DNA of 64,000 nucleotides from a virus, in IMG/VR virus record IMGVR_UViG_3300011116_000796, positions 55,655 through 119,654 of that record; one strand, 5' to 3'. The notes beneath the pieces are model-generated. The model was given only the letters and a program-made list of their open reading frames with translations. It was not told the origin of the DNA and ran no database searches. Within the stretch, counting starts at the first letter, position 1; every line of letters starts with the position of its first letter. The position numbers and the translations under genes are program-made. Shown here one piece after another: positions 926-64,000 of this stretch.

Positions 926-926
926 T

Positions 927-2206: not shown

Positions 2207-2212
2207 GGAAAA

Positions 2213-2500: not shown

Positions 2501-2516
2501 TTGAGGGAAATTACAA

Positions 2517-21735: not shown

Positions 21736-22941
21736 ATGATGGAAAGTGCAACTATTGATGCTGTGAATGTGAACGATTCAACGAGTGAATTACCTCAGAG
21801 CACAAAGACCAATACAGTAACATTGTGCATGATTGTCAAAGATGAAGCACATGTCATCGAAAGATGCCTTTCTTCAGTTGTGCCTGTGATTGACTATTGG
21901 GTTATTGTGGACACGGGATCAACTGACGGCACACAGGAGAAGATCAAAGACTTCTTCGACAGAAATAATATTCCTGGTGAACTACACGAAGTTCCTTGGG
22001 TAGATTTCGGAACAAATCGAAGCAAAGCACTAGAACTCGCTCAGAAGACCGGATACGACTATTCATTAATGATCGATGCAGATGAGATTCTTGTTTTCGA
22101 TCCTGGATTTGATCCCGATCAGTTCAAGAATTCGCTAACCGCAGATCTCTATAATGTTTTTGCGATCTACGGTCAAACAAAGTACCACCGTCCTCAACTT
22201 ACAAGTAATCACAAACGATTCTATTATCGTGGAGTTCTCCATGAGTATGTCGATTGCCATGAGGAAATTGGAGCAAGAGATTTTGCCCGTGGATTTGTTA
22301 ACACGCCAATCCAAGATGGCAATCGATCTAAGTCTGCTGATAAGTATGCGAAAGATGCTCTTGTGTTTGAAGAGGCACTTGCATCGGGTAAAGTTGAAGA
22401 GAAAGACTTCAATAGATATCACTTCTATCTTGCACAGTCATATCGTGACTCGCAGCAATGGGAAAAGTCACTTTCGGCTTATCTGAAGAGAGCAGAACTT
22501 GGTGGGTGGAATGAAGAAGTTTTCTATTCTTACTATCAAGCAGGAAGAATTATGGAGGTTCTCAAGAAGGAATTTGATGAGATCATCCGCATGTACTTCC
22601 AAGCCTATCAAGCGGCTCCTTGGAGAGCAGAGAGTCTTTGGGCTGCTGCAAGACTTTGTCGAAACTACTGCCGATGGGATCAGGCTTATCGCTTTGCAAA
22701 GCAGGCACTAAAGATCAGATATCCTGAGGGTGCTCTGTTCGTAGGTCAGACGATTTATGATTGGGCAATTCTTGATGAGTTTGCAATTTCGTCATATTGG
22801 ACTGAGAATTATCGTGAATCTCGTCTTGCATCCATTCAGTTGCTGAATGACAACAAATTCCCCGCTGATCAGAAAGAGAGAATTGAGGCAAATCTCAAGT
22901 TTGCTACCGAATCTCTGCTGAATGAACAGCAGGCCAAGTAA
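21736..22941 (+). CDS. Family-2 glycosyltransferase with C-terminal TPR repeats
   Basis: TLCMIVKDE..VIERCL.S, VIVDTGSTDGT, DADE (DxD), GVLHE; TPR-like helices (FYLAQSYRD, FYSYYQAG); SD GGAG and CTAAATA box upstream. Confidence 0.92.
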   Translation: MMESATIDAVNVNDSTSELPQSTKTNTVTLCMIVKDEAHVIERCLSSVVPVIDYWVIVDTGSTDGTQEKIKDFFDRNNIPGELHEVPWVDFGTNRSKALELAQKTGYDYSLMIDADEILVFDPGFDPDQFKNSLTADLYNVFAIYGQTKYHRPQLTSNHKRFYYRGVLHEYVDCHEEIGARDFARGFVNTPIQDGNRSKSADKYAKDALVFEEALASGKVEEKDFNRYHFYLAQSYRDSQQWEKSLSAYLKRAELGGWNEEVFYSYYQAGRIMEVLKKEFDEIIRMYFQAYQAAPWRAESLWAAARLCRNYCRWDQAYRFAKQALKIRYPEGALFVGQTIYDWAILDEFAISSYWTENYRESRLASIQLLNDNKFPADQKERIEANLKFATESLLNEQQAK

Positions 22942-38936: not shown

Positions 38937-39563
38937 ATGTCACAATTTAGTATCGATGGATTCAGAGCAAATCTTGTAAATGGCGTAGCCAGAAACAACC
39001 TATTCCTAGTTCAGGGCAACTTTCCAAATGCAGGACTTGGTGCAGTCAATTTTGCAGCAGCGGCAGCGGGGGCTTTGCTTGGTGCCGCCGCAGCAGGAGC
39101 GGTAAATGCCGTTGCTGGTGCATTAGGAGCAGGAAGCCCAAACAATCAAGTTTCGTTTCTGGCAAAATCAGCATCTATTCCTAATAGTGTGTTGAATATA
39201 GGCACAGCAAATTATATGGGTCGGCAGTTTAAGTATCCTGCTGATCGCACGTTCAATGACTGGAATATCACAGTCTACAATGATGGAGCATATACTCTTC
39301 GTAAAGCGTTTGAATCGTGGCAAAATACAATTAACACGAATAAGACCAATGTTGGTCCAAATGCAATGAACACATTTATGACAGATTGGTATGTGTCTCC
39401 ACTTACCCGTGAAGGTAATGTGATTACTACTTATAAGTTCGTTGGATGCTGGCCTTCAACACTAGGCGAAATCGCCCTAGACATGGGTCAACAATCTGAG
39501 CCTTCAAATTTCCAAGTTACTATGACATATCAGTACTATGAAATTGCGAATGTCACCACTTGA
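38937..39563 (+). CDS. gp19: Tail tube protein gp19 with Ala/Gly-rich insertion
   Basis: AR.NLF.V, GR..K..ADRTF.DW.ITVYND, R.AFE.W...IN, Y.F.GCWP, F.VT..YQY; follows gp18. Confidence 0.92.
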   Translation: MSQFSIDGFRANLVNGVARNNLFLVQGNFPNAGLGAVNFAAAAAGALLGAAAAGAVNAVAGALGAGSPNNQVSFLAKSASIPNSVLNIGTANYMGRQFKYPADRTFNDWNITVYNDGAYTLRKAFESWQNTINTNKTNVGPNAMNTFMTDWYVSPLTREGNVITTYKFVGCWPSTLGEIALDMGQQSEPSNFQVTMTYQYYEIANVTT

Positions 39564-46879: not shown

Positions 46880-47422
46880 ATGGGAAATACTCCAAACATT
46901 CCTGATGACAGAATTGCTGGTATTCTAAATCAGCAACCTCCTAATACTAATGTTGCCTATGCATCAAATTTTCGACTATTCATACCAAAGGTGAAACTGG
47001 GGGTGTATTTCTGCACCGAGGTTACATTTCCTGGTTGGGAATGTCCACCGGTTAGATTACCAATTCGGTTTGCACCATCACTGAAATTTTGGGGGAACAA
47101 AGTCACCCATGGAGAAATATCAGTAAAGTTCATAGTGAACGAAGATTATTCAAACTACTATGAGATGAGCGATTGGTTCAAAAAGAGTCTTGTGTGGGAA
47201 GATTTCTTCAAGAACGGAACTGATGTACAATTATTGACAAACACCGCACATCTTCTCATATTGTCTAACAAGAAGAATCCCGTTGCCACATTTAAGATAA
47301 ATGGACTTATGATAACAGGACTATCATCTATTGATTATAATAGTGGAACAACCGATGCACCAATCACAACGGCGACCGCTACCATGCAATTTTCAACTTA
47401 CGATCTTGAGGAGTTCAAGTGA
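46880..47422 (+). CDS. Tail tube terminator gp3-like protein (copy 1)
   Basis: NFRL.I......YFC..V..PG, F.V.ED..NY.E...W, L.IL.NK.NP motifs of gp3/gp19 fold; usual position after gp23 in T4-like cyanophages. Confidence 0.8.
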   Translation: MGNTPNIPDDRIAGILNQQPPNTNVAYASNFRLFIPKVKLGVYFCTEVTFPGWECPPVRLPIRFAPSLKFWGNKVTHGEISVKFIVNEDYSNYYEMSDWFKKSLVWEDFFKNGTDVQLLTNTAHLLILSNKKNPVATFKINGLMITGLSSIDYNSGTTDAPITTATATMQFSTYDLEEFK

Positions 47423-47961
47423 TGAATCCACAACCTCAAATCGAAAATTTTGAACGGTTTGGTATACTTGGTAATCAAGCCATCAATACGAATCTGGCTC
47501 TAAACACAAACTTCAGGTTTATTCTGAAGAAAATTCCATATACAACATATTTCTGTACGTCGATTACTACACCATCATCAACATCCGAGCCAATGAGTTA
47601 TGATTACATAACTGCTGCACAACTTAAATTGCCCGGAGGAAGAACTAATACTGATATTTCTATACGGTTCATTATATCCGAAGACTTCAAGAACTATATG
47701 GAAATAGTCAATTGGTTTAGATACAGTGTTGCTTATCGTGATTTTTCGAAGATAGAACCAGAGAGTATAGTTGGTCCTTCGGATGGTCAAATGCTTCTAT
47801 TGAACAATAAGAAGAATCCCATCTACATGATCAACTACAGAAATTTGATACCAACAAATCTATCTGGATTTACATTAACCAATTCCGAGAGCGAGCCGTC
47901 TGTTTTGACTGCAACAATTCAGTTTGTTTATGATACTTACAGCGTAAACAAACTCAATTAA
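47422..47961 (+). CDS. Tail tube terminator gp3-like protein (copy 2)
   Basis: NFRFILKKIP..TYFCTS...P, FIISEDFKNYMEI.NW, LLNNKKNP, PTNLSG; TGATG coupling. Confidence 0.8.
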   Translation: MNPQPQIENFERFGILGNQAINTNLALNTNFRFILKKIPYTTYFCTSITTPSSTSEPMSYDYITAAQLKLPGGRTNTDISIRFIISEDFKNYMEIVNWFRYSVAYRDFSKIEPESIVGPSDGQMLLLNNKKNPIYMINYRNLIPTNLSGFTLTNSESEPSVLTATIQFVYDTYSVNKLN

Positions 47962-48615: not shown

Positions 48616-48651
48616 GTTTAGTAGTGTTGGAACCCCTAAGAAAGGTTGAAT

Positions 48652-49089
48652 ATGTTCGCACCTGAACTCATATCATTGATTGGCGGATCCGCCGTTGGAT
48701 TTCTCTTCAAGTTCATGGCGCAGAAAGCGCAAGATCAGAAAGAGATGTTCAATCGCCTCATAGAGGCAAACAAGAGAACAACTGAGAATCAAGATAAGGC
48801 AGCAGAGCGTGTGCCTCTTGATGTGGGCAAGGGGGTCCGTCAGTTGATTGTGCTTTCAGTCCTGTTCGGAACTCTTCTTGCTCCGTTTATTCTCCCATTC
48901 TTTGGTGTACCCACATTCGTTGAAGTGGACACCAATACATCAGAGGCACTGTTTGGATTAGTTCCTGCTACAGCAAAGAAGTATTTTGTTGAAGTGAACG
49001 GATTTGTTTATGCCTCTGAAACACGACAGATTCTTGTAAGTATCGTCGGTTTCTACTTCGGAACCGCAGCAGCAACAAACAGAAGTTAA
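48652..49089 (+). CDS. Membrane protein (about 3 TM segments), late-expressed
   Basis: Hydrophobic segments LISLIGGSAVGFLFKF, LIVLSVLFGTLLAPFILPFFG, ILVSIVGFYFG; ATAAATA box at 48609. Confidence 0.75.
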   Translation: MFAPELISLIGGSAVGFLFKFMAQKAQDQKEMFNRLIEANKRTTENQDKAAERVPLDVGKGVRQLIVLSVLFGTLLAPFILPFFGVPTFVEVDTNTSEALFGLVPATAKKYFVEVNGFVYASETRQILVSIVGFYFGTAAATNRS

Positions 49090-49098
49090 GGAGTTACC

Positions 49099-49497
49099 AT
49101 GAACATCAAACTATTATCGTTTACTGCGCTCCTTTTCCTTGGTGCATGCTGCACGGCTCCCGAAATTGTTCCTGACTCAACAGGCGACTCGGTCATCATG
49201 TTGAGCCTGAAAGAGCAGATCGCAAAGAACAGCAAGATCGATGCGGGTTGGGGATGGATTGCTTGGTATCTGCCTGTAGTAGGTCTTGCGGGGGCTTGGG
49301 CATGGAGAGAACTGATCAAGAAGCCTTTCACATGCGATACATGCGAGTTCGAAAAGAGCAAAGCCGTCAATGCCTACAAGAAGATCAAGGCCAATGAAGA
49401 AAAGGCCAAGGCTGATGCAGCCAAGGCCGATAAGCAAGAAGACGAAAAGAAAGAACAGGATCAACCAACTGATCCTGATCCGAAGCCTAATCCTTGA
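49099..49497 (+). CDS. Putative lipoprotein with additional TM helix
   Basis: Signal peptide ending in lipobox LFLGA-C; Trp-rich TM WGWIAWYLPVVGLAGAWAW; SD AGGAG. Confidence 0.75.
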   Translation: MNIKLLSFTALLFLGACCTAPEIVPDSTGDSVIMLSLKEQIAKNSKIDAGWGWIAWYLPVVGLAGAWAWRELIKKPFTCDTCEFEKSKAVNAYKKIKANEEKAKADAAKADKQEDEKKEQDQPTDPDPKPNP

Positions 49498-52641: not shown

Positions 52642-53673
52642 TCACTCTACCAAAGCAGGCTCGGATCCCTGCATCTGCTTGGTGAGCAAAGCCATGTCGT
52701 ACTTGTACATGATCTTGGCAAGGAGTTTCATATCCACCTTTGGTTCCCATCCAAGCACACGCTTGGCCTTTGATGGATCGCCAAGAAGGAACGGAACTTC
52801 GTTCGGACGGAAGTACTTGGGGTCAATGACAACATGCTTGTTCCAATCAAGCCCTGCCTCTTCAAAGACTTCGGTCAAGAACTCACGAACGCTGTGAGTC
52901 TTCTGCGTTGCAACCACATAATCATCTCCCTGTGGTTGTTGCAGCATAAGCCACATAGCCTCCACATAGTCCTCTGCATAACCCCAATCACGAAGTGCGT
53001 CAAGGTTTCCAAGGCGCAGTTCAGACTGCAATCCCATCTTGATTCTTGCAGCAGCCATCGTAATCTTACGAGTCACGAATGTCTCACCACGACGAGGACT
53101 TTCATGATTGAAAAGAATGCCTGACGATGCGTGAAGACCATATGCATTTCGATACACACGGGTCATGTGATGAGCATGAAGTTTTGCAACAGCATATGGA
53201 GACACAGGCATCATGATGCTATTCTCGTTATATCCGACCGAAGGATCATAGTCCTTGCTGTCGCCAAACATCTCAGATGAGGATGCCTGATAGAAACGAG
53301 TCTTGGGGCTGAAAGTGCGAATTGCTTCAAGAATCTTTAATGTTCCCGATGCAATACCATCACATGTGTACTCGGGAATCTCAAACGATACCGCAACATG
53401 TGACTGTGCAGCAAGGTTGTAGAATTCATCAGGCTTATGTGTCATGATGACATGAGCGACAGCAGACCCATCAGTCAGATCAAAGTGATGCATCTTAAAT
53501 CTAGGATGATTGAAAAGGTGATCGATTCTTGTCGTACTGATAGATGATGTACGACGCTTGAGACCGATGACCTTATATCCCTTTGCCAAGAGCATGTCGG
53601 CAAGATATGAACCATCTTGACCATTTACGCCCGTGATAACAGCAGTCTTTCCATTCCAAATTTCATCTTGCAT
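52642..53673 (-). CDS. gmd: GDP-mannose 4,6-dehydratase
   Basis: ITGVNGQDGSYLA, YNLAAQSHV..SF..PEYT, FYQASSSEMFG, SPYAVAK, GILFNHESPRRGETFVTRKIT, LGNLDA.RDWG. Confidence 0.97.
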   Translation of the reverse strand: MQDEIWNGKTAVITGVNGQDGSYLADMLLAKGYKVIGLKRRTSSISTTRIDHLFNHPRFKMHHFDLTDGSAVAHVIMTHKPDEFYNLAAQSHVAVSFEIPEYTCDGIASGTLKILEAIRTFSPKTRFYQASSSEMFGDSKDYDPSVGYNENSIMMPVSPYAVAKLHAHHMTRVYRNAYGLHASSGILFNHESPRRGETFVTRKITMAAARIKMGLQSELRLGNLDALRDWGYAEDYVEAMWLMLQQPQGDDYVVATQKTHSVREFLTEVFEEAGLDWNKHVVIDPKYFRPNEVPFLLGDPSKAKRVLGWEPKVDMKLLAKIMYKYDMALLTKQMQGSEPALVE

Positions 53674-54245: not shown

Positions 54246-54560
54246 TTAACTGCGCTCATTCATGAACTTTCCATATGCACCCTCTGGACCGTCGTTGGGA
54301 AAGCGGTCGTGCCTGTCCCAATCTGCTTGACGCAGGGATTCATTCTCAAGCACGACACTTTCGATATGTTCAATCACCTTACGAAACGCTGCTCGTTCCT
54401 TTTCGCTGTATGCTTCCTTGTCATTCACACAGTCATTGAGGAACTTGATCGCATCGAACTTCGCCTTGGGCTTGGGCTTTCGCTTGGGAGTGTCCCAATC
54501 GATGTGCAGTCCACGCTTGAGACCATTTGCGGTGCGAGTGTTACGATAGTTGGATTTCAT
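54246..54560 (-). CDS. Hypothetical protein
   Basis: 104 aa; TAATG coupling to upstream acidic ORF. Confidence 0.7.
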   Translation of the reverse strand: MKSNYRNTRTANGLKRGLHIDWDTPKRKPKPKAKFDAIKFLNDCVNDKEAYSEKERAAFRKVIEHIESVVLENESLRQADWDRHDRFPNDGPEGAYGKFMNERS

Positions 54561-54844
54561 TAGTTGTGTCCTTCATCTTCGTAGTCACTATCGTCATCAT
54601 CTTCACCATCTTCGATGAAGTCATCTTCGTCATCCCAACGATCATCGTAATCATCGGGGTAAAAGACATCGTCATCATTCAACGATTCATCATCACAGAC
54701 TGGCGAGTCACGATCAGCATGCCAATCCCAATTGGCCTGCATGTCATCGTCATCTTCGGAATCGTAGTTGTCAGGATCTCCGCTCATGTCATTGTGGAGA
54801 ACGGAGGCGTAGTGGTCATCAAGATCGTCATAGGGGTTGGTCAT
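54560..54844 (-). CDS. Extremely acidic small protein
   Basis: 94 aa with 35 Asp and 7 Glu, no Lys; SD AGGAG and promoter directly upstream. Confidence 0.75.
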   Translation of the reverse strand: MTNPYDDLDDHYASVLHNDMSGDPDNYDSEDDDDMQANWDWHADRDSPVCDDESLNDDDVFYPDDYDDRWDDEDDFIEDGEDDDDSDYEDEGHN

Positions 54845-54866
54845 GTGGATTACTCCTGTTTCAGAT

Positions 54867-54894
54867 AGTATAACCCCTTCCTCAAATATTTCAA
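54867..54894 (-). promoter_or_regulatory. Sigma70-type promoter
   Basis: TTGAAA-16 nt-TATACT on - strand. Confidence 0.65.
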
Positions 54895-54934
54895 GAGGTA
54901 AACATCACCAAACCAAAGATTTCTTTGGAGGTTA

Positions 54935-55135
54935 TCAGTCTATGTTGGAAACTACCATCCAAGCCCCAAAGGGGTCGGATTTGCGTAGCAATCGTTTAGC
55001 CTTGGTTAAGGCTTCCTCCTGCTTTCGTACTTGGTTGAGTGTGCGCTTCAGAGCCTTCTGAAGCCGTCGAATCTCGTCATTCGCCATTTCGGCGTAGTAA
55101 CCGGACTCTCTAGGGGTCATAGATTCTGCATCCAT
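54935..55135 (-). CDS. Small coiled-coil hypothetical protein
   Basis: 66 aa; SD GGAGG upstream. Confidence 0.65.
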   Translation of the reverse strand: MDAESMTPRESGYYAEMANDEIRRLQKALKRTLNQVRKQEEALTKAKRLLRKSDPFGAWMVVSNID

Positions 55136-55209
55136 TTGAGTACCCTCCCATAGTGTTTATGTAAGAGAGGATTCCCAACACCTAGTATTTTTCATGCATA
55201 CATATTTTC

Positions 55210-55584
55210 ATGGCTATATCCCAAACCGAAACGGCTAGAAGTGCCGTGGAGCAGTTTCTTCTTAGTTATGGGATAGATATCGGATTCTTAATCTCCGGTT
55301 TCTTTGGTGCCCTGCTCCTCGTCCCCAAAAACTCCGCACAGCGTGTTGGATCGACTCTTGCTTCCCTTCTGGCGGGCACAGCCTGTGCCAACTACTTGAC
55401 TCCTGTGGTCATGAGCATGCTTCCAGATGCCGTACAGAGCAACGGAAAGTATGCTGTGGCATTTGTCATGGGGTTTATGGGTTTGAAGGGTCTTGAGATG
55501 GTAATTAATCGATACTTTACGGCGCACGAAAAAAAGCCTACTAAAAGAAAAGTAAAGAGATCAACTAAGACAAAGAGGAAATGA
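55210..55584 (+). CDS. Membrane protein, holin-like
   Basis: About 3 TM segments (LISGFFGALLLV, LASLLAGTACANYLTP, YAVAFVMGFMGL) and a basic C-terminal tail. Confidence 0.65.
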   Translation: MAISQTETARSAVEQFLLSYGIDIGFLISGFFGALLLVPKNSAQRVGSTLASLLAGTACANYLTPVVMSMLPDAVQSNGKYAVAFVMGFMGLKGLEMVINRYFTAHEKKPTKRKVKRSTKTKRK

Positions 55585-55928
55585 ACATGGACTGGTTGAT
55601 GGAAAACAAAGTTTGGTTGAATTTAGCCAGTAATGCAGTTTTGACTATGTCTTTTGCGTCCTTCATCATTTTCGTATTCGGAAGAAGCAATTCAATAATT
55701 CATAAGTTCAGTCTGCCAAAATCATTCGCATTGAAGACAGGACTTTCGATTTGCACAATAGGTGCTTTATACAATGCACTTACATTCAGCGACCCTCCTC
55801 TTTCAGAGGTTATTCTGAACACGGGTCTAGCCACACTATTCACATGGGCCGCACTATTTCACCATGAGCGGTTTGTGAAAAACTCAAGCGTCAAGGTGGC
55901 AAAGAAAAGAAACTTCAAGCGGAAATAA
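55581..55928 (+). CDS. Membrane protein (about 3 TM)
   Basis: Hydrophobic segments with basic C-terminus; ATGA overlap with the upstream holin-like gene. Confidence 0.65.
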   Translation: MNMDWLMENKVWLNLASNAVLTMSFASFIIFVFGRSNSIIHKFSLPKSFALKTGLSICTIGALYNALTFSDPPLSEVILNTGLATLFTWAALFHHERFVKNSSVKVAKKRNFKRK

Positions 55929-55945
55929 GAGAGTAATCAGATACC

Positions 55946-55952
55946 CTAAATA
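55946..55952 (+). promoter_or_regulatory. Late promoter before PEP-CTERM pair
   Basis: CTAAATA in intergenic gap. Confidence 0.7.
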
Positions 55953-55990
55953 CAGGCATCTGATGTGATCTCATTTCATATTGGTTCGTC

Positions 55991-56683
55991 ATGTGGTTTC
56001 CGTTTTTAAGGAACTGCAAGATGATCAAACCATCACTACCATTACCAACTAATTCAAGTGGCGGAGACTCATGTGAGTCCTGCAAAATGCTTTGCGAGAA
56101 ATCGAAAGATAAAGTAGAGAAACTTGAGAGCAAGGTCGGAAAGATGACAATCGCTCTGACTGTGTCTGTAACTCTGCTTGGTCAAGAACTTGCCAAAACT
56201 GTCATGTCGTATGTTGATAGCATCAACAAGATATCAGATGTCTCAACTGATGGTGAAACAAGTCAAACTGAAGAGAAGGGTGAGCAATCGAATAACTTTG
56301 AACTCAAACCGAAGTCACCATTTGTCTTGCCTCCATCCGACAATTCGGATAAGAGCGATAAAACGCCAATGGCTGCAAATGAGCCTAAAGGCGACTCGCC
56401 ATTCAAACCATCACCATCTACAAATTCACAGTCGAGAGGACAGTCGAATTCTGACATTCAATCATTGCCATCTACTGAAGATATGAGGAATCTCATGCAG
56501 AGTGCTTTGAATGAGCCACAGGAATTGCCTAACCTATCTCAGTTGATGTCATATGACCTTGCACCATTCGGTGGGTATGACATGTATACAGTTCCCGCAC
56601 TCGACTATACAAATATCCCATCGCCAAGTGGAATCTATTTGTTCGCCATGGGTGGAATGTTCGGATCTCGCAATCGTTCATAA
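55991..56683 (+). CDS. Protein with PEP-CTERM-like C-terminal sorting signal
   Basis: Ends IPSPSG-IYLFAMGGMFGS-RNRS; CTAAATA box at 55946; exact start uncertain. Confidence 0.65.
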   Translation: MWFPFLRNCKMIKPSLPLPTNSSGGDSCESCKMLCEKSKDKVEKLESKVGKMTIALTVSVTLLGQELAKTVMSYVDSINKISDVSTDGETSQTEEKGEQSNNFELKPKSPFVLPPSDNSDKSDKTPMAANEPKGDSPFKPSPSTNSQSRGQSNSDIQSLPSTEDMRNLMQSALNEPQELPNLSQLMSYDLAPFGGYDMYTVPALDYTNIPSPSGIYLFAMGGMFGSRNRS

Positions 56684-56695
56684 TAAAGGACAAGA

Positions 56696-57328
56696 ATGAA
56701 TAAGAATCTCCCCGCTATCGCTCTCGCAACATCATTGGCTGTTCCCGCTTCTGCTGGTCTTGTTAATGGAGGATTTGAATCCTTCCCCGTATGGGGTTAT
56801 GACTTCTACAGCGGAACCATTCCCGAAGACGGATGGGCAACAACTGCTCCCGACAATCTTATTGAAGTTTGGGGGAATGGATTCTTTGGAGTCCCTGCTT
56901 ATGAGGGAAACACATTTGCTGAACTGAACGCAAATTATGCATCAACACTCTATCAGCATGTTTCAAATGTGCCAGCAAACGGATCGGTGAACTGGCACTT
57001 CGCTCACCGTGGCCGTGATGGTGTAGATACAATGAATCTCACGATCACAGATCTTGGTGCAGATCAATCGTGGGGAGGTGGCGACGATACAGTTCTGTTC
57101 ACGCAGAACTTCTCAGCAGGCAATACTGACTGGGTCTTCAATTTTGGATCAGTGACCACCCTTGGTAACACAACAAGGTTTGCGTTTGAGGCTGTTAATG
57201 CCGTAGGTGGTAACACCCAAGGAAATCTTATTGACTTCTGCGATTTTGACATCAACGCAGTTCCTGCTCCAGGTGCAATTGCCTTGGTGGGTCTCGCTGC
57301 GTTCTTTATGTCACGCCGCCGACTTTGA
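56696..57328 (+). CDS. PEP-CTERM sorting-domain protein
   Basis: Signal peptide MNKNLPAIALATSLAVPASA, LVNGGFE beta-sandwich start, C-terminal VPAPG-AIALVGLAAFFMS-RRRL. Confidence 0.9.
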   Translation: MNKNLPAIALATSLAVPASAGLVNGGFESFPVWGYDFYSGTIPEDGWATTAPDNLIEVWGNGFFGVPAYEGNTFAELNANYASTLYQHVSNVPANGSVNWHFAHRGRDGVDTMNLTITDLGADQSWGGGDDTVLFTQNFSAGNTDWVFNFGSVTTLGNTTRFAFEAVNAVGGNTQGNLIDFCDFDINAVPAPGAIALVGLAAFFMSRRRL

Positions 57329-57344
57329 TATGAAATTCAAAAAC

Positions 57345-57379
57345 AAAAAGCCCCCGCATTACTGCGGGGGTTTTCTTTT
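57345..57379. terminator. Bidirectional Rho-independent terminator
   Basis: aaaaag-cccccgca-ttac-tgcggggg-ttttctttt between convergent genes. Confidence 0.9.
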
Positions 57380-57394
57380 GGACTCGTAGTTCTC

Positions 57395-57703
57395 TTACTG
57401 AGGAACGGTCTGATCGTAGTAGTGCTGACCCTGATCGGTCAGGTTGTACTCGGGATTGCCCTCTTCGTCGTAGACGGTCACTTCGACCAACTTGCCGTTC
57501 GTGCCCGTGGGCGCAGAAGCGTTCTCTTCAAGGGCACCCATCAGGATGGAGACTGCCATTGAGGGGTTGGTGGTGAGCATCCACACGGCCACCTCCTGAA
57601 GGGACATGGTAGCGGGACGATCCTTGTAGGTCAGCCAGTTCTCAGCGACTTGATCGTCGGCTTGGGCGGGAGGGGGCAGGACGGCAGTAGTGGTCTTCTT
57701 CAT
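57395..57703 (-). CDS. Hypothetical early protein
   Basis: ORF starting MKKTTT just downstream of a sigma70 promoter. Confidence 0.7.
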   Translation of the reverse strand: MKKTTTAVLPPPAQADDQVAENWLTYKDRPATMSLQEVAVWMLTTNPSMAVSILMGALEENASAPTGTNGKLVEVTVYDEEGNPEYNLTDQGQHYYDQTVPQ

Positions 57704-57711
57704 ACGCCATA

Positions 57712-57739
57712 AGTATACAGACTTTTGGCATTCTGTCAA
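57712..57739 (-). promoter_or_regulatory. Sigma70-type promoter
   Basis: TTGACA-16 nt-TATACT on - strand. Confidence 0.8.
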
Positions 57740-57751
57740 GCCCCTAAACCA

Positions 57752-58063
57752 CTACCAATCGTGCATGGGATTGGTTTCACTTATCGGACTATCGTGGGTG
57801 ACCTCACGAACAATTCCCTTGGCGGCATCGGCAAATTCAAGAATCGGAAGTTTCCTAGCCGAATCGATGAGTTTCATGCAATCTTGAATTTCATCAAGGT
57901 TATCGAACAGATCCAGATTGACGCATTCCACGCTGATTCCTGATAGAGTGTTATCGTCATTCCAGTACGCATGGTGAATTGCGTATCTGTTAATAATGTT
58001 GCCGTCACTATCCCAAAGAGAGTGACGGCAGACTCTGTAGTTATGAATCCTGTCATCGGACAT
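57752..58063 (-). CDS. Hypothetical protein
   Basis: 103 aa; NYRV...YAIH..Y....A...P.L pattern common in small phage proteins; TAATG coupling. Confidence 0.7.
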   Translation of the reverse strand: MSDDRIHNYRVCRHSLWDSDGNIINRYAIHHAYWNDDNTLSGISVECVNLDLFDNLDEIQDCMKLIDSARKLPILEFADAAKGIVREVTHDSPISETNPMHDW

Positions 58064-58278
58064 TACTTCTTCTCCGTAAGCCTTACGATTTCACGAACCA
58101 ATGATTCGATCATGAGAGCGGCATTTCCATATAGTTGAGAGTCTCCACAGATAGAGACCAAACTGTTCTTGGATTCCGCACGAAGTTTTGCAGCAAGCCG
58201 TAAAGCATTACTCTGCTTCATGAGCCTACGCAGAGTTGCTCTTGCTTCCTTTTCTGTAGGTTGTTCACTCACTTGCAT
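58063..58278 (-). CDS. Hypothetical protein
   Basis: 71-aa ORF within a coupled - strand gene string. Confidence 0.6.
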   Translation of the reverse strand: MQVSEQPTEKEARATLRRLMKQSNALRLAAKLRAESKNSLVSICGDSQLYGNAALMIESLVREIVRLTEKK

Positions 58279-58486
58279 TCCCCTTGAGAGAAAGAATGTG
58301 CTTGGTCACATCCATGGTGATGTTGGTAAGTTCGATCTCTTCCTCTTCGGTGATCCACGAAAGACCAGTCTTAATGACATAGTTCAATTCACGAATCATG
58401 CAAACAAGATCGTCAAGTTGGGCATTGTCTTCTTTCCAACTCTCAATACCGTGGAGAGCGACAATCATACCAATAAAGTTGCTCAT
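58265..58486 (-). CDS. Hypothetical protein
   Basis: Probable start at ATG 58486 (MSNFIG), just after the stop of the 57-aa upstream ORF. Confidence 0.55.
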   Translation of the reverse strand: MSNFIGMIVALHGIESWKEDNAQLDDLVCMIRELNYVIKTGLSWITEEEEIELTNITMDVTKHILSLKGNASE

Positions 58487-58493
58487 GTGGCAG

Positions 58494-58667
58494 TCACTTG
58501 GTCTCATCTTTTGTTTCCTCATCTGCGAAGTAGTTGTTGAGAGCGTTCAGAACACTGAGATAGAGATTGGTTCCCCATGTGTCGCCTCTGTCACCAAACT
58601 TCTCGGTGACAGACTTGGCGAACGCATAAGAGATCTGCTGAAGATCATCTTGAGAGGGCTTCGTCAT
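58494..58667 (-). CDS. Small hypothetical protein (57 aa, absent from ORF track)
   Basis: MTKPSQDDLQQISYAFAKSVTEKFG...EETKDETK; ATGA overlap with upstream gene fills the gap exactly. Confidence 0.65.
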   Translation of the reverse strand: MTKPSQDDLQQISYAFAKSVTEKFGDRGDTWGTNLYLSVLNALNNYFADEETKDETK

Positions 58668-59071
58668 CGCTTCCCTGCTTCAAGAATCGGAAGCCCCGCT
58701 TCCGTAGGGATGTAGATGACAGAGTTCGAACCCGACTCAAGGTTCTGAATCCAAAGCCAACGGAGGTACGATTCATTTCCTGCGAGAGATTCTCCGATGA
58801 TAAGATTCGCTTGTGCAACACCATGCGCCCTTTCGATTTCTGCCATCGCTAGTGCCTTGGCGGCTTCACGCTTGGATTCTGCCTCAAGAATCTGAATCTT
58901 TCGATTTTGTTCTGCCTGTGCGTATTGCGCCGCACCCTCCATCTCAGCCGCCCACACATTGTACTTCGGCTTCAAATAGGCGCACGATCCCACGACTGCG
59001 GTGAGGCCGATAACACCAATGGCAGCGAGAGTGAGGATAGAGTAACCATTTTCGTTTTCGATGTAAGACAT
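58664..59071 (-). CDS. Membrane-anchored SPFH/stomatin-prohibitin-like phage protein
   Basis: N-terminal TM, AE-rich coiled coil (AQAEQNRKI..EAE..REAA), YLRWLWI, VIYIPTEAGLPILEAG. Confidence 0.75.
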   Translation of the reverse strand: MSYIENENGYSILTLAAIGVIGLTAVVGSCAYLKPKYNVWAAEMEGAAQYAQAEQNRKIQILEAESKREAAKALAMAEIERAHGVAQANLIIGESLAGNESYLRWLWIQNLESGSNSVIYIPTEAGLPILEAGKR

Positions 59072-59128
59072 TCTGTTCGTTTCCTTTGCTTGAATTAGTT
59101 AGAACCAGACATTTGGTTCTTTGGGTTA

Positions 59129-59156
59129 ATTGTATAGTGTTGGGAGGATATGTCAA
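59129..59156 (-). promoter_or_regulatory. Sigma70-type promoter
   Basis: TTGACA-16 nt-TACAAT on - strand. Confidence 0.7.
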
Positions 59157-59175
59157 TAGGTAAAGGTGTGAGAAC

Positions 59176-59421
59176 TTACTTTTTCTTTTGAAGCCGAATT
59201 GGAGTTATCGGTCTAGATTCCCACTCTTCGGGAAACTGACCTTCGAAGATTTCCTCGACCCAAAGTAGGGGCAATTCTTGTTCGACATCTCTACCGTCAA
59301 TATCACCGTAGAGCCAACAGTTTCCCTTTGCAAGATCGATTCTTTTGATTTCGTATTTGCCGCTGTCATCATCGTCGGAGATGTAGATCTTGTCTCCAAC
59401 CTTGAGTTTCGTTGTTTTCAT
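59176..59421 (-). CDS. Hypothetical protein (KOW/SH3-like start)
   Basis: LKVGDKIYI motif; ATGA overlap with upstream gene. Confidence 0.65.
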   Translation of the reverse strand: MKTTKLKVGDKIYISDDDDSGKYEIKRIDLAKGNCWLYGDIDGRDVEQELPLLWVEEIFEGQFPEEWESRPITPIRLQKKK

Positions 59422-59879
59422 TTCGTATTACCCTTTCTCTTTCTTGAGAACGCTGCTAGACCAAGTGCGAGAATTGGAATTGCACTTGGAGATGGAATTG
59501 GAGGTGGGTATGTTACTGATATATCACCAATTTGGTTTGGAATCATCGGAAACGATACACTCTCCACTCTATCAAACTGAACAGGAATGTAGAGATCCTG
59601 ATTCATGGTCTGAATCGCCAACACAAGAAACTCATCATTATAGATCTTGTGTACCCAAAGCCCCGTAAATGAACCCATGAACATGGGCATATCATTCTGT
59701 GGGTAGTTGCTTACTGTTGGTAGGTAAAGAGCAGATGTAACAGGATTCGTGATCTGTGATGTAAAAGTGAAGACACTCGGATAGTTGTAAGAGTCTCCTA
59801 AGTAAACTGCTCCCTGATCTATAGTTCTTGAATATCTACCGGCAGAGTCATAAATCGTAGATGTTGAATATGAGATCAT
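59418..59879 (-). CDS. PEP-CTERM-type protein without evident signal peptide
   Basis: Ends IPSPSA-IPILALGLAAFS-RKRK; start at ATG overlapping upstream TGA with SD GGAG. Confidence 0.75.
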   Translation of the reverse strand: MISYSTSTIYDSAGRYSRTIDQGAVYLGDSYNYPSVFTFTSQITNPVTSALYLPTVSNYPQNDMPMFMGSFTGLWVHKIYNDEFLVLAIQTMNQDLYIPVQFDRVESVSFPMIPNQIGDISVTYPPPIPSPSAIPILALGLAAFSRKRKGNTK

Positions 59880-60559
59880 CACTTTCTCCGTCGATTTGAT
59901 CCAAGCGCACAACTGCACAGCGCAAGAGCAAATGTTCCAGGAGAAGGGACAACTTCCATGTAGTAGAAATTGTCCATGGCAAAATGCTTGCGGTATTTGC
60001 CCAACGAATCATCGATCTCATTCCAGATGTGCAATGTGTCGATTTCATACCCCGCACCATAACTCACCCATGATCGATATTCATTAGAAATACTTTGCCC
60101 ATAATCAAACACAGTATTTCCATCTCGGATTCCTTGAATCCTGATGTTTCCGTTTTCCCATATAGATGTAAACCAAGCACCAAAGAAGTGCCAGTTGTTT
60201 CCGCTTGCCAATCGAATTGACCAACGCACAGGTTCTGAGTGATAGTATTCGGTGTAATATGGAGTGAACGCTGCTCTTTGACCAATTACACCAATTGAAT
60301 AACTTCCTTCTTGAGCGATACTTGAGTTTGAATTGTAGTATCCCCAACCAGTGCTGTTCCAACCATTGCTATTCGCATATCGTGGTGGAGTGGGAACACC
60401 ATTCTCTAGGCATTCGAAACGAAGTCCCTGATATTTTTCAAGGAATCCTGCACCATTGAATGGTACACTCGGATCTTCCTCAAAATCAACTAGAGTGACG
60501 CTTGCGTTAGCAAAGCACGATGAAAGACACAGAGCAAAAAATCCATTGTAAATATTCAT
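59879..60559 (-). CDS. PEP-CTERM sorting-domain protein
   Basis: Signal peptide ending ANA-S, VDFE start, FAMDNF near end, C-terminal VPSPGT-FALALCSCALGS-NRRRK. Confidence 0.88.
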   Translation of the reverse strand: MNIYNGFFALCLSSCFANASVTLVDFEEDPSVPFNGAGFLEKYQGLRFECLENGVPTPPRYANSNGWNSTGWGYYNSNSSIAQEGSYSIGVIGQRAAFTPYYTEYYHSEPVRWSIRLASGNNWHFFGAWFTSIWENGNIRIQGIRDGNTVFDYGQSISNEYRSWVSYGAGYEIDTLHIWNEIDDSLGKYRKHFAMDNFYYMEVVPSPGTFALALCSCALGSNRRRK

Positions 60560-60612
60560 GATGATTTCCTATAATAAAGATTTCAGAGGGTCAAATTAAA
60601 TCAGAAGTTAAA

Positions 60613-61671
60613 TTATAAAGGTGGAACAGAATTTGGCTGTATGGTGTAACTACCAAATTCCGCTAATAAGATTGCAAGGTCTGCTCCATCCACAACTCCA
60701 TTAAAATTAAGATCACAAATCGAATTAGTTTTACCGAAATTAGCCTGCATTACTGCAAGGTCTGCTCCATCCACATTCCCATCTTGATTGAAATCGGCTG
60801 CTTTTGCGGAGATTTTGGTTCTTGAAATTTGATAATCTTTGCTTACCTGACTTATGAGGGCATTTAGATTGTCCATCTCCGGTGGCCTAATATACCCGCC
60901 GCTCCACGAAAGACCTATAAGAATAGTATCATTATATTTGTCCAAGACAAAATATGGAGTTCCACTATCACCAGAGAATACCGAATAAAAACAATTCTGA
61001 GAGCACGTTAATGTCTCTGCACCTTCGTTAATCCCGTTCTCTCCAAGAATTACAGTCTGAGTAAATGAAAATGGGTAACTCAGTGGTGGATTGGTTTGCC
61101 ATGTCGCAACACCCATTTTACTTTTAAGACATTTTCCATTACAGTCATGGTACCAAATTGTGTGGCCTGTGGGGATGTACTGAACATCGGCAATCTTGTT
61201 GTAAACTTTTACATCATCCACGGGAACTGATTCACTAAATTCAAGAAGTGTACGATCAGTTGAGGTGTTGACTGTCACTTTTGAAACCATCATTGTGTAT
61301 TTTGTGCCGGACTTTCCAAGAAAGGTATAACTCTCATTTGGATTGGGATTGGGATTGGTTCCTCTATAGTGCGTACTAATTAATGCATGTTGTGGAGTGA
61401 TAAGAACCGCACATGGAACGCCTGTATTGTAATAGTTAATATTTGATTGATCATACGCTGATGCAGTAGTCGGTCCTCTTCGATAAAAAGACCGCTGTCG
61501 TAAACTCACACCAGACCAATCTACGGCAGCACCTTGGCATTGTGGATTATATGCAACAGGAACACCATTGCAGCAGCAGGGGCAAGTTGCTTGATTGGGT
61601 GGGGTGTAGACCGCTTCTGGATTGTATAGGTGAATGTCGTGAATTTGGGGTATGTAAGTTTTTACGATCAT
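60613..61671 (-). CDS. Trypsin-like serine protease with C-terminal dockerin-like (GADL) repeats
   Basis: Triad motifs LITPQHALISTHY (His), DRTLLEF (Asp), GDSGTP (Ser); C-terminal ADFNQDGNVDGADLA and CDLNFNGVVDGADLAILL EF-hand pair. Confidence 0.85.
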   Translation of the reverse strand: MIVKTYIPQIHDIHLYNPEAVYTPPNQATCPCCCNGVPVAYNPQCQGAAVDWSGVSLRQRSFYRRGPTTASAYDQSNINYYNTGVPCAVLITPQHALISTHYRGTNPNPNPNESYTFLGKSGTKYTMMVSKVTVNTSTDRTLLEFSESVPVDDVKVYNKIADVQYIPTGHTIWYHDCNGKCLKSKMGVATWQTNPPLSYPFSFTQTVILGENGINEGAETLTCSQNCFYSVFSGDSGTPYFVLDKYNDTILIGLSWSGGYIRPPEMDNLNALISQVSKDYQISRTKISAKAADFNQDGNVDGADLAVMQANFGKTNSICDLNFNGVVDGADLAILLAEFGSYTIQPNSVPPL

Positions 61672-61748
61672 GACTCTTTCCTCATCACTAGTAGATAGGT
61701 CATAGCAAACTCATCTTTTTATACAGTCTGGTCATCTTGTTCATGTAA

Positions 61749-62837
61749 TTACTTTGCTCCCAAAACATCTCTTCCAAGAATGCCATTAGTGGTCAACATA
61801 TGGAAGGATGTATCTGCTAAAAGGTCGAAAGAAAGTTGCTCGTAAAATCCATTTGCTCCCCAAGGTGTTCCTTCGTGCCATAAACCTCTCTGTTGAGGGG
61901 GTGGGGTTGACGATCCATTCCACCCTGCCCGGGCACGACGGTCAGCGTCCATGACTTCAGATACTGCAACAGCACTAACATGACCATCAAAGAACAGTGT
62001 ATTTGGTGTGCTACTATTCCCTTGATTAAAGAACCAAGGAGTATATCCGCCAGCAAATCCGGGATTGAGTGGCCCACCGTCTTGATTCTGTAGCCAATAG
62101 AACTCAATCATGCGAGTCTTTAGTTCAGAATACTTTGCTTGACCCTGTGTAGGACACTTGTACCCTGCGGGAAGAGTATTAGGATTTCTAAATCCCTTGT
62201 CTGAAAGCACATCTGGGTTCCACAATGCGGCAGGACTCCAAACATATGTTGAAAACACTACTGCACCAGGTTGATTGGGAAGCAGAGTAAATTCGCCAGG
62301 ACTGCCTAGACCTTCATCTGCTCGTTCCATTGTCAGTTTGTCTTTTGGAGCAATAAAGGTTCGGTCATAGAAACGACCATTAATGTAACTATTGAACGCC
62401 TTTACATTAGGCAATCGGTAATAGCCAAAGCCTCCATTAGTGAAAGTCCACTCGTTTGGGTGGTACACAATCCAATTGTTGCACCCGCCTGGTTGTGTAA
62501 GCGGACACAAGCCGCCGCCCAACCAGTATCCGTACAGGTTTCCTTGACTGTCCCACCCCAAAATCTGTTGACCAGGACAGCCAATAGTATTCAGATACAC
62601 TTGGCAACTACCGTTAGCAAGACCAAAATCGTCTGCTGCTTGTGTAAACTGACGGTCAGCGTAATCAGCCCCGTAAGTAGCATTAGCAGCGGCAAGATTC
62701 CTTAGATTGCCAAGGCTTTGAGTCACTAGAGCAGCATCTCTTGCTCGTCCCAGTGCAGGAAGCAAAATTGCAATCAGTAGTGCGATAATGGCAACGACAA
62801 CCAACAACTCAACAATAGTAAATGCCTTCTTTTTCAT
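61749..62837 (-). CDS. Prepilin-type N-terminal cleavage/methylation protein (planctomycete DUF1559/H-X9-DG class)
   Basis: KKKA-FTIVELLVVVAIIALLIAILLPALGRAR..A....NLR.L; C-terminal NTLFFDGHV; SD AGGAG. Confidence 0.92.
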   Translation of the reverse strand: MKKKAFTIVELLVVVAIIALLIAILLPALGRARDAALVTQSLGNLRNLAAANATYGADYADRQFTQAADDFGLANGSCQVYLNTIGCPGQQILGWDSQGNLYGYWLGGGLCPLTQPGGCNNWIVYHPNEWTFTNGGFGYYRLPNVKAFNSYINGRFYDRTFIAPKDKLTMERADEGLGSPGEFTLLPNQPGAVVFSTYVWSPAALWNPDVLSDKGFRNPNTLPAGYKCPTQGQAKYSELKTRMIEFYWLQNQDGGPLNPGFAGGYTPWFFNQGNSSTPNTLFFDGHVSAVAVSEVMDADRRARAGWNGSSTPPPQQRGLWHEGTPWGANGFYEQLSFDLLADTSFHMLTTNGILGRDVLGAK

Positions 62838-62850
62838 ATTTTCTCCTTAA

Positions 62851-63219
62851 TTAAAGTAGTCCCATCTCTTCATCAAGTCTAGTCATCTCTTTAAGTGCCT
62901 CATCTACACTAATTTTAAGTTTACTCGGATGATCCTTGAGGTATTCCCACCCACGCTTCTCGTATTCCTCATTCATCTCTTTGGTGGATGCACGATCAGA
63001 CAGCAGGAGCATCGCTTCCCGCCTCGCCTCGTCACGCTCCTTACGCAGACGCTGAATCTCGTTACCCCGTAGGTCTTGGATTTTAATGGCTGCTTCGTAT
63101 AGCAGCGTAGGAATACCGTCCAGTTCGGATCGTTCCCCAAATGGGGTGGATGCTTGCCTGCGGCTCAACTCATAATACATCGACCTGAGCCTGTCAACGA
63201 TGTCTGTGTTGTCATCCAT
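62851..63219 (-). CDS. Hypothetical protein
   Basis: DIVDRLR...EAA..I..LR...ERDEARR phage motif; SD AGGAG before ATG 63219. Confidence 0.7.
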   Translation of the reverse strand: MDDNTDIVDRLRSMYYELSRRQASTPFGERSELDGIPTLLYEAAIKIQDLRGNEIQRLRKERDEARREAMLLLSDRASTKEMNEEYEKRGWEYLKDHPSKLKISVDEALKEMTRLDEEMGLL

Positions 63220-63236
63220 TGTTGTTCTCCTTGTTA

Positions 63237-63518
63237 TCAAATCTTCTTGGGCAGAGTGAGGGGGTAGGAAGGTCCGCTGACAACTTCATTCTGAATGAGG
63301 ATGGTCTTCAGGGTGTCGAATGCCTCACCCATCTCCTCTGAGATGTCATCACATGCCTTCTCAATATCACGACCGCTGATGGAGCGTGACGAGACATTAT
63401 TGTTGAGTTTAGTAATCTTTGCGAACAGACCCTCCATCGTCTTTGCGATGTCGTAGAGGTCAGATGCACTTGTGGTAACGGTCTTGTTGGTCTTGTTCTT
63501 TGTTGCAGTCTTAGGCAT
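63237..63518 (-). CDS. Hypothetical early protein
   Basis: Start MPKTATK after SD AGGAG and promoter. Confidence 0.7.
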   Translation of the reverse strand: MPKTATKNKTNKTVTTSASDLYDIAKTMEGLFAKITKLNNNVSSRSISGRDIEKACDDISEEMGEAFDTLKTILIQNEVVSGPSYPLTLPKKI

Positions 63519-63539
63519 TGTCAATCTCCTTGTTGTTAG

Positions 63540-63568
63540 AGTATAGCAGGTAAATGGTGTGCTGTCAA
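63540..63568 (-). promoter_or_regulatory. Sigma70-type promoter
   Basis: TTGACA-17 nt-TATACT on - strand. Confidence 0.85.
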
Positions 63569-63666
63569 GCAAACATCTTGCGGATCTTTTTGTAGCCGTA
63601 GTATGCCACCATTGACACTCCAGCAACGATGGCTGCGGCTTTGATGTACTTCCAAAAGTTATTCAT
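63565..63666 (-). CDS. 33-aa single-TM peptide
   Basis: MNNFWKYIKAAAIVAGVSMVAYYGYKKIRKMFA; SD AAGGAG. Confidence 0.65.
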   Translation of the reverse strand: MNNFWKYIKAAAIVAGVSMVAYYGYKKIRKMFA

Positions 63667-63686
63667 GGCTTTCTCCTTTCTGTGTT

Positions 63687-63998
63687 TCAGTTGATTACTT
63701 CTGTTGTGACGGGAACGGGTTTTGAGCGTTGCTTGTACTTCTTGTACAGGAAATAGGCAAGGTAGGCAATCGCCGCCAAGATACCCATTTTCAATAGGGA
63801 CGAGAACCATCCGCTGCTGGGCTTCTCATTGGTCTTACTGCCATCCGCTTCCTCGCTGTGTGCGTGGTTCTTCTTGCAAGCACATCCCGAAAAGTAGAGA
63901 CTGCTGTAGTGGCGCAACTCGGATTCAAGATGACGAATCTTGTTGTCCTTGCTTAAAAGTTTCCACTTGGTGTCATGCAAGTGAACCATGTAGAGCAA
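63687..63998 (-). CDS. Membrane protein, 5'-truncated at window edge
   Basis: Open to window end; C-terminal TM MGILAAIAYLAYFLY followed by KKYK. Confidence 0.6.
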   Translation of the reverse strand: MLYMVHLHDTKWKLLSKDNKIRHLESELRHYSSLYFSGCACKKNHAHSEEADGSKTNEKPSSGWFSSLLKMGILAAIAYLAYFLYKKYKQRSKPVPVTTEVIN

Positions 63999-64000
63999 GG

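Follow-up and report, generated by a model that had tools for sequence, protein, structure and literature searches.

Some phage-made envelope proteins, lipoproteins and membrane exclusion proteins among them, depend on export pathways of the host; the T5 lipoprotein Llp and the T4 proteins Imm and Sp, for example, are phage envelope proteins that block receptors or superinfection. Here we describe six genes, named A to F in order of position, in a 64,000-nt stretch of viral DNA (hereafter the window; bases 55655-119654 of IMG/VR record IMGVR_UViG_3300011116_000796). An earlier note, made from the letters of the window, had presented them as a single kit addressed to three host envelope-sorting systems, with PEP-CTERM-type tails on A, B, C and D, a dockerin-like anchor on E and a prepilin leader on F, and all six open reading frames (ORFs) lie where it placed them. 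Like Llp, Imm and Sp, their products would be small phage envelope proteins that rely on host export or modification enzymes and act on the surface of the infected cell. Unlike those proteins, which follow Sec and lipoprotein routes and have proven functions, they bear PEP-CTERM-like and prepilin-type tags, and their function is one that we infer.

Haft et al. (2006; PMC1569441) describe PEP-CTERM proteins as generally having a signal peptide and a near-invariant Glu in the motif and as occurring in Planctomycetes, and the proposed route is one in which an exosortase (EpsH, Xrt) releases the proteins toward the surface or the exopolysaccharide (EPS). A preprint (bioRxiv 10.64898/2026.09.15.751708) mentions in passing HOG10, a mobile or viral protein with a PEP-CTERM annotation and a predicted membrane location that is encoded by the IME1 elements of Dehalococcoides; HOG10 differs from the proteins described here in belonging to an integrative, filamentous or budding-like element with a host of another phylum. 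In a literature search whose coverage left out supplements and subscription journals, we found no description of PEP-CTERM-type or planctomycete-type prepilin proteins in tailed phages.

Our analysis showed two separate gene sets in place of one kit, with different promoters and different evolution: a conserved late pair, A-B, on the + strand, and a variable early-type set, F-E-D-C, whose four genes are contiguous and co-oriented on the - strand, as the earlier note had said. On balance, and with moderate confidence, we favour the view that both sets are envelope-directed and borrow bacterial sorting signals, that the phage encodes no matching enzymes, and that host enzymes would be used to alter the cell surface. 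Parts of the region recur in other viral contigs, where the earlier note had proposed to look for the same cluster. An A-like ORF stands directly upstream of a B-like ORF in 24 of the 39 loci with a B homologue, and E-like genes have a D-like or F-like gene a short way upstream in three loci (L021, L026 and L023; a D-like gene in the first two), so that this neighbourhood too recurs. Neither exosortase (PF09721) nor prepilin peptidase (PF01478) was found in the whole 119,654-bp record (67% complete), which extends what the earlier note had seen in the window and answers its proposed check of the remaining genome, and exosortase was likewise missing from five related viral records, which measure 123-175 kb and include one that is 100% complete.

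The tails of A to D are the most direct link to the PEP-CTERM system, sharing with it a P-x-P motif, a transmembrane (TM) helix and a basic cluster at the extreme C-terminus. Searching the record for C-termini made of [VILFT]P[AESTG]P[GSATN], 11-22 uncharged residues and then at least two K/R, we obtained matches in four of 348 ORFs of at least 60 aa, and in none of 100 shuffles. The four are A (IPSPSGIYLFAMGGMFGSRNRS), B (VPAPGAIALVGLAAFFMSRRRL), C (IPSPSAIPILALGLAAFSRKRKGNTK) and D (VPSPGTFALALCSCALGSNRRRK), exactly those singled out earlier as ending in [V/I]P[A/S]P[G/S], a TM segment and basic residues; the TM helix and terminal basic cluster are present in all of them, the cluster of A (RNRS) being weak. 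Further likenesses to PEP-CTERM proteins are the presence of several copies in one genome and, for B and D, a small body rich in beta structure behind a putative signal peptide; read from the sequence, the N-terminal h-regions of B and D end in ASA and ANA. When the D-family and B-family profiles were compared (hhalign), only the tail was common to both, over 32 columns with a probability of 94.8% and E 5e-8. Six of 23 B-family members match PF07589 at E<=0.1 (best E 2e-4). The Pfam PEP-CTERM model matches one of the five related records at E<=0.1, though three of the five hold a B homologue; the model is insensitive to these tails.

B (56696-57328, +; 210 aa) consists of a putative Sec signal peptide, a body of the carbohydrate-binding module (CBM) type and a Glu-less VPAPG-TM-RRRL tail, and glycan binding is predicted for it from its model. 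The AF2 model of B is a beta-sandwich (pLDDT 82.5) that matches the CBM folds 8xmz, 2xom, 4xup, 2y6k and 2zew (Foldseek E 3e-7 to 1e-5, TM by target 0.55-0.70) and resembles CBM4, 16, 22 and 61 and a porphyran-binding module; there was no match to a Pfam CBM family. B has 241 homologues of near-uniform length, and an alignment of 22 of them (A2; 56-70% identity to B) has 49 invariant columns, including the first Pro of the tail (P190), with the second (P192) nearly so. A pattern scan located the family in 39 loci in viral contigs and found one relative in 185,579 species genomes (one genome per species), a scan that distant bacterial relatives could escape; that lone relative outside the viral set sits on a 9.5-kb scaffold also bearing homologues of other genes of this phage. 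A (55991-56683, +) has a CxxC...C motif, a coiled coil, a short hydrophobic segment, a low-complexity region and an IPSPS-TM-RNRS tail. It is fast-evolving (93% identity in L008, a viral locus from another sample, and 18-28% outside its closest relative), while C28, C31, P210 and R229 are invariant among 16 sequences (alignment A4). A complex prediction for B (residues 21-190, A2) with A (residues 68-212, A4) scored 0.00 against a mark of 0.32, with the fold of the partner uncertain, and counts neither way.

A CTAAATA motif (55946-55952, +) precedes A by 45 nt. The window has fewer copies of HTAAATA than expected (22 against 31.8), and 16 of the 22 copies fall 7-120 nt upstream of a start on the same strand, zones that make up 5.9% of strand positions; the starts so preceded include those of the sheath, portal, scaffold, capsid and fibre genes, the gene at 48646, and A. 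In our reading, HTAAATA serves this phage as its late promoter and A-B belongs to the late genes. With one match against 2.2 expected, the T4 late consensus TATAAATA was uninformative, and the looser HTAAATA was used in its stead. The pair thus appears, from its distribution and its motif, to be conserved, late and essentially phage-restricted. A GC-rich hairpin terminator (57351-57370; eight pairs, seven of them G-C, followed by a T run) separates this + strand unit from the convergent - strand unit.

In the second set, D (59879-60559, -) has a putative signal peptide, a beta-rich domain and a VPSPG-TM-RRRK tail, and its family (42 cluster representatives at E<=1e-3) provides a bridge to bona fide PEP-CTERM proteins. 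In alignment A3 the tail stays in register from VP[AS]PG in close relatives to the canonical VPEP in distant ones. Three of the distant members, with VPEP tails, pass TIGR02595 (29.9, 29.2 and 21.9 bits against a cut-off of 16), and one distant member matches the body of the flocculation protein PepA model over 130 residues. Nearer to D, a homologue with 61% identity is found in L009/L010 and the nearest ESM-Atlas cluster is 100% viral; the members of ten D-family clusters bore no taxon names, and the family profile gave only chance-level rows against PDB sequences (E>=0.21). One member, P0329, has two dockerin-like repeats in place of the PEP-CTERM-type tail. Judging from this member, tail and dockerin modules seem interchangeable in the D family.

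C (59418-59879, -; 153 aa) has an IPSPS-TM-RKRK tail, and its ATG overlaps the stop of D as TGATG; we took this ATG as the start over an upstream GTG. The C tail aligns with that of the D family at an hhalign probability of 78%, and PF07589 occurs in 92-100% of the members of the Atlas clusters nearest to C, with feature overlap under the trust mark. The same minus-strand block holds another envelope protein (58664-59071, -; 135 aa), with an N-terminal TM segment, which matches phrog_11227 'protease' (E 5e-45), has a 75% identical homologue in L083 and resembles a short SPFH/prohibitin-type membrane protein.

F (61749-62837, -) is pseudopilin-like, with a class III (prepilin) leader, MKKKA|FTIVE. 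The cleavage and methylation leader seen in the earlier note was borne out by PF07963 (N_methyl; 24.4 bits against 21.2) and TIGR02532 (21.1 against 16.3), and the alpha-1 helices of pilins in the PDB match the N-terminal 55-60 residues of F (within residues 2-62). F shares with the prepilin-leader proteins of Planctomycetota (type II pseudopilin-like; DUF1559/H-X9-DG) the short basic leader, Phe at +1, Glu at +5, the hydrophobic alpha-1 and a large C-terminal body of about 330 aa. It has 2759 homologues at E<=1e-3 among 8000 scored candidates. Among the 120 matches listed, 15 bear a taxon name (ten Phycisphaerae/Phycisphaerales, four Planctomycetota and one 'bacterium') with 47-58% identity, some on contigs of up to 2.4 Mb; closer relatives, with 63-96% identity, bear no taxon name. 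The suggested tie to Planctomycetota thus finds support, the nearest named relatives being from Phycisphaerae metagenome-assembled genomes. At the same time, F differs from those proteins in having Ala at -1 (among the 120 relatives listed, G in 68 and A in 42) and no match to TIGR04294 (H-X9-DG) or DUF1559 (PF07596) at E<=1, so the H-X9-DG label proposed for F fell away. Eight relatives of F likewise gave no TIGR04294 match at E<=0.01; one (P0083) has a precomputed PF07596 match, and some are named 'prepilin-type processing...' by JGI. The N..F.DGHV element reported near the C-terminus does exist (NTLFFDGHV), but about 70 residues from it.

A further difference from the planctomycete proteins is that F is phage-borne and common to two phages at 92% nt identity. 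A 123-kb viral contig (L003) holds a copy (97% aa identity) with unrelated flanks, where only three others of the 33 ORFs of the locus have a homologue in the present phage, and the DNA likeness ends at the F gene plus 61 nt upstream. In a related fragment (L011) the corresponding site has a D-like tail instead of F, and a tblastn search of cultured phages found no relative of F at E<=1e-3. With Phycisphaerae as the named relatives, a copy in another context and a D-like tail at the equivalent site, F is thus, as far as its sequence relationships indicate, a mobile phage cargo gene with ancestry in Phycisphaerae. The shared DNA spans window 61748-62898 and L003:9940-11090, its upstream 61 nt overlapping the 3' end of the upstream gene in both. 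Its edges may be those of a mobile cassette, or the shared stretch may have a regulatory role.

A sigma-70-like promoter, TTGACA-17-TATACT with a TG (63540-63568, -; 11 of 12 consensus matches), lies upstream of the ATG at 63518 and is a candidate head of a unit running to F-E-D-C. Because of this site, and because no copy of HTAAATA precedes F, E, D or C, the unit is probably early.

We propose that B and D, and less surely A and C, would enter the host Sec pathway. The Cys motif and coiled coil of A would be cytoplasmic, followed by the short membrane segment, a disordered periplasmic stretch and the tail. The tails would either hold B and D (and A and C) in the inner membrane or allow a host exosortase to free the proteins to the surface or the EPS layer, while F would have its leader removed by the prepilin peptidase of the host and be built into a fibre of the type II secretion or type IV pilus kind. 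Overall the cell surface would be changed, with, for example, masking of a glycan receptor, superinfection exclusion or progeny guarded from debris. Receptor masking, comparable to that by T5 Llp, is a role that a sugar-binding module displayed on the cell late in infection could well serve, and surface remodelling by tagged phage proteins is plausible.

A wider version of this proposal is possible, but we hold it only tentatively. In it, T4-like phages that infect PVC-type bacteria in fresh water bring substrates of their own for the host exosortase, namely the late sugar-binding B together with A. The enzyme would deliver both to the surface or EPS, where they would aid egress or mask a glycan receptor. 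A lytic phage would in that case depend on exosortase as a host factor, with the Glu-less tail as a version of the signal adapted to phages. If exosortase reads the tails, this would be the first viral use of that pathway, a marker for host prediction of uncultured freshwater phages, and a source of compact natural substrates (B being a folded CBM protein of 210 aa) with which to work out the still-unsettled function of exosortase. The phage-restricted B family points as well to a glycan important for infection.

Several observations weigh against the view that host enzymes process these proteins. None of A, B, C and D reaches a curated cut-off (20.7 bits for PF07589, 16 bits for TIGR02595) of the PEP-CTERM models that the earlier note had proposed to search with. 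The B tail scores 16.2 bits with PF07589 and 13.4 with TIGR02595, the C tail scores 12.4 with PF07589, D matches only the tail of NF038120 (E 0.026) and has no PEP-CTERM domain match, A matches no PEP-CTERM model, and the best match in a scan of the whole record with these models has 19 bits, under the cut-off. The Glu of the motif is replaced by Ala in B (PAP) and by Ser in A, C and D (PSP); family-wide the middle position may hold A, S, T, E, G, D or N, with Glu in few members only. A has, after its coiled coil, only a hydrophobic segment of about 14 residues and lacks a classical signal peptide, and C and its homologue in L097 have no signal peptide. The genes sit in a lytic phage without exosortase, the close relatives of B and D are themselves viral and not host proteins, the B family being nearly confined to viral contigs, and the close D relatives P0319-P0321 have no TIGR02595 match. 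A B homologue is present in three of the five related records and E in two, each being missing from the rest. E falls outside the sorting idea altogether, a lysis module would account for the linkage of A-B to holin-like genes almost as well, and sigma-70-like sites, which are consensus matches only, number 13 in the window against 16.0 expected in shuffles. The host, probably a Phycisphaerae planctomycete to judge from sequence likeness, is read from just two features, F and the dockerin tail of E. Of the claim that host-type sorting signals are present, then, the layout of tails and leader stands, while the tails are Glu-less and sub-threshold, and that exosortase reads them is something we infer.

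The genes that accompany A-B bear on another explanation, in which the tails are plain C-terminal membrane anchors with no part for exosortase, and A-B, together with a holin-like pair, a lipoprotein and a multi-TM protein, form a lysis or egress cassette whose anchored periplasmic proteins act like spanins or antiholins or bind a glycan of the wall or outer layer at lysis. The first holin-like protein (h1; 55210-55584, +) has three hydrophobic segments and a basic tail, a layout that fits holins, and matches phrog_2359 (E 4e-12), phrog_198 (E 1.4e-5) and, weakly, Pfam Phage_holin_8 (E 0.25); the second (h2; 55581-55928, +) is a membrane protein with a basic tail and shares in that layout. The small lipoprotein (lp; 49099-49497, +) has a signal peptide with a lipobox (...LFLGAC), a second hydrophobic segment and a charged tail, and the multi-TM membrane protein (m1; 48646-49089, +; phrog_38283), with TM segments assigned by hydropathy, is preceded by HTAAATA at 48609. 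Across the 39 B loci, homologues of m1 and lp adjoin in 17, the order m1-lp-A-B occurs in 14, an h1 homologue directly follows B in seven, and the order B-h1-h2 is seen in five. This linkage to holin-like, lipoprotein and multi-TM genes, together with the late-type motif upstream of A, suggests, on the view that we favour as well, that A-B acts at the envelope late in infection.

The absence of Glu from the tails and their scores under the cut-offs also favour plain anchors, and the layout of B, with its N-terminal signal, beta-rich body and C-terminal TM segment, recalls unimolecular spanins, of which T1 gp11 is one. Among 51 further proteins of the record, none could be recognised as a canonical endolysin at E<=1e-5, although with the record 67% complete this has no weight as proof. 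At the same time, B lacks a lipobox, and the CBM-type fold of its body, which is well conserved, is not spanin-like. A bare anchor would not need a motif, yet the two prolines of P-x-P are conserved, and the D family grades into true PEP-CTERM proteins. The holin calls, moreover, rest on PHROG names only. Taken together, we regard a lysis or egress cassette as unlikely, though deserving of serious consideration, and continue to favour sorting signals read by host enzymes for the tails of A to D.

E (60613-61671, -) combines a chymotrypsin-fold serine protease domain (H95, D139 and S236) with a type I dockerin. The paired dockerin-like repeats described earlier are real: Dockerin_1 (PF00404) scores 29.3 bits against a cut-off of 22.9 with two repeats, which are also visible in the DNA as a 42-nt direct repeat, 79% identical. 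The first 281 residues form a chymotrypsin-type double barrel (AF2, pLDDT 88.4). This model matches plasmin, tryptase, DegS and MamO at a Foldseek probability of 1.0, and gives Z 12-13 with an rmsd of 3.3-3.4 over 176-180 residues in VIA (plasmin: Z 12.9, rmsd 3.3, 180 residues), where 594 of 999 chains have Z>=8. In an alignment of 27 sequences (A1), D139, the GDSGxP motif with S236, and H101 are invariant and H95 nearly so, and the triad is spaced much as in chymotrypsin. There was no Pfam Trypsin match at E<=1, and membership of the PA clan is at the level of fold only. E is, on its model, a chymotrypsin-fold (PA clan) protease, with activity predicted.

E has no signal peptide, TM segment or hydrophobic N-terminus, and belongs to a widespread phage family, with 54 viral loci. 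In these loci E-like genes follow baseplate genes, adjoin those for capsid and tube, separate the two terminase genes (small and large) or lie among replication genes, and none of about 50 full-length relatives is informatively annotated. Only the dockerin part resembles Phycisphaerales proteins. Like cellulosome-type type I dockerins (PF00404), that of E has two 22-residue Ca-binding repeats and scores above the cut-off; unlike them, it occurs in a phage family, on a trypsin-fold catalytic body without a signal peptide, and some family members carry another C-terminal module in its place. Because it lacks a signal peptide and is a member of this phage family, E is probably not host-sorted, and the idea that its dockerin is a sorting address was abandoned, a dockerin being a binding module and not a sorting signal. 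E may instead be a virion-associated or lysis-released protease with a binding module. E-like genes are sometimes followed by genes for dockerin-ended proteins of 690-817 aa, also without a signal peptide, as seen directly downstream in L030, L032 and L036. Some phages have two or three tandem E-like paralogues of 454-488 aa, again without a signal peptide (for example, L064:2377-6996).

The proximity of D, which starts 53 nt after E, raises the possibility that the two work together, the dockerin of E binding D or a host PEP-CTERM-anchored cohesin-like protein, so that the protease is displayed or the phage docks. D is a small secreted beta protein with a PEP-CTERM-type tail, D-like genes are near E-like genes in the two loci named above, P0329 bears a dockerin in the place of the tail, and the E dockerin resembles those of Phycisphaerales, all of which would suit such a pairing. 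On the other hand, E has no signal peptide, D has neither a cohesin HMM match (E<=1) nor a PDB sequence match to a cohesin, and most E-like loci have no D-like neighbour (among 102 loci, five hold a D-like gene and 52 an E-like gene). We consider a partnership of this kind improbable.

To follow the region in nature, 31-mers sampled from 54500-64000 were sought in public runs. At least half of them occur in each of eleven runs, whose labels are freshwater, lake, wetland, aquatic or estuary, with near-identical copies in runs of at least eight studies. A 5,504-nt contig from a run of a different study (X3) covers 56270-61773 at 99.4% identity (33 differences), from the end of A through B and the change of strand to C, D and E. 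Synteny with L008 extends over 52.6-57.1 kb, with 85-96% aa identity (A 93%, B 95%), and the genes at 63565-63998 recur at 77-90% identity in another viral locus (L088). Contigs bridge the 5' junction of F (62723-62874), and the 3' junction is reached by 25-30 nt only; contigs break inside F and the depth rises two- to three-fold there, as expected if several genomes share F. Contigs of an RNA run (X18) cover 55134-55355, 57200-57453, 58228-58525 and 63019-63997, in a library that may hold DNA; as contigs, moreover, give no level of expression, these were not counted as transcription.

Contigs in two further runs (X4 and X5) join 60559 to 62855, omitting E and F, with sides of only 30 and 20 nt and no direct repeat that would explain the joint, and in X5 the contigs with D and E have a depth of 4.5-5.9 against about 22 in the flanks. 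These contigs are a weak hint that some members of the natural population lack the E-F cassette. Together with the 92% nt identity of F in two otherwise different phages, such partial presence might mean that F, D and C are recently captured passengers without a phage role. However, no reading frame is broken, translation of C is coupled to that of D, homologues of D, C and F recur in other viral contigs at 26-61% identity, so that they have been kept over long divergence, and the near-identical copies come from many studies. We give passengers a small chance only.

That the region is host DNA mis-assembled onto the end of the phage contig, as its position 1.2-8 kb from the contig's 3' end, its slightly higher GC (0.45 vs 0.40) and the resemblance of F to bacterial genes could suggest, is barely credible given the X3 contig, the synteny with L008, the genes shared with L088, the bridged F junction and a GC rise that begins at 44 kb, within structural genes. 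This check, on a result that the earlier note had named as a refutation, supports continuity of the phage DNA, and for 52.6-61.8 kb the independent contig and the L008 synteny rule misassembly out.

The remainder of the sequence identifies the virus. The IMG/VR record is linear (119,654 bp; CheckV completeness 67%), and window positions 1-48 kb hold, on the + strand, a T4-type virion module (PHROGs) with genes for baseplate hub and wedge, fibres, neck, terminase, sheath, tube, portal, prohead protease, scaffold and major capsid protein, in agreement with the earlier assignment to a T4-like phage, while the rest of the record has T4-type replication and recombination genes (UvsW, UvsY, gp32, RNase H, ThyX). 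The major capsid protein has at most 64% identity to the capsids of Pelagibacter, Methylophilales and cyanobacterial myoviruses. The six-gene region is an accessory arm of this uncultured freshwater T4-like myovirus.

Two genes of sugar metabolism share the genome with the CBM-type protein B: a GDP-mannose 4,6-dehydratase-type gene (52642-53673, -; PF16363, E 6e-123), preceded by a late-type motif, and a glycosyltransferase-like gene (21736-22941, +; phrog_13126) within the fibre module. Just 3' of the capsid gene are two tandem tail tube paralogues of 180 aa (46880-47961, +; phrog_45), separate from the main tail tube gene at 38937-39563. Outside the window, the record encodes two large proteins (record positions 11-3013 and 14629-16905), one of 1000 aa that fuses a RimK-type ATP-grasp domain, a Zn-protease-like domain and DUF3140, and one of 758 aa with collagen triple-helix repeats.

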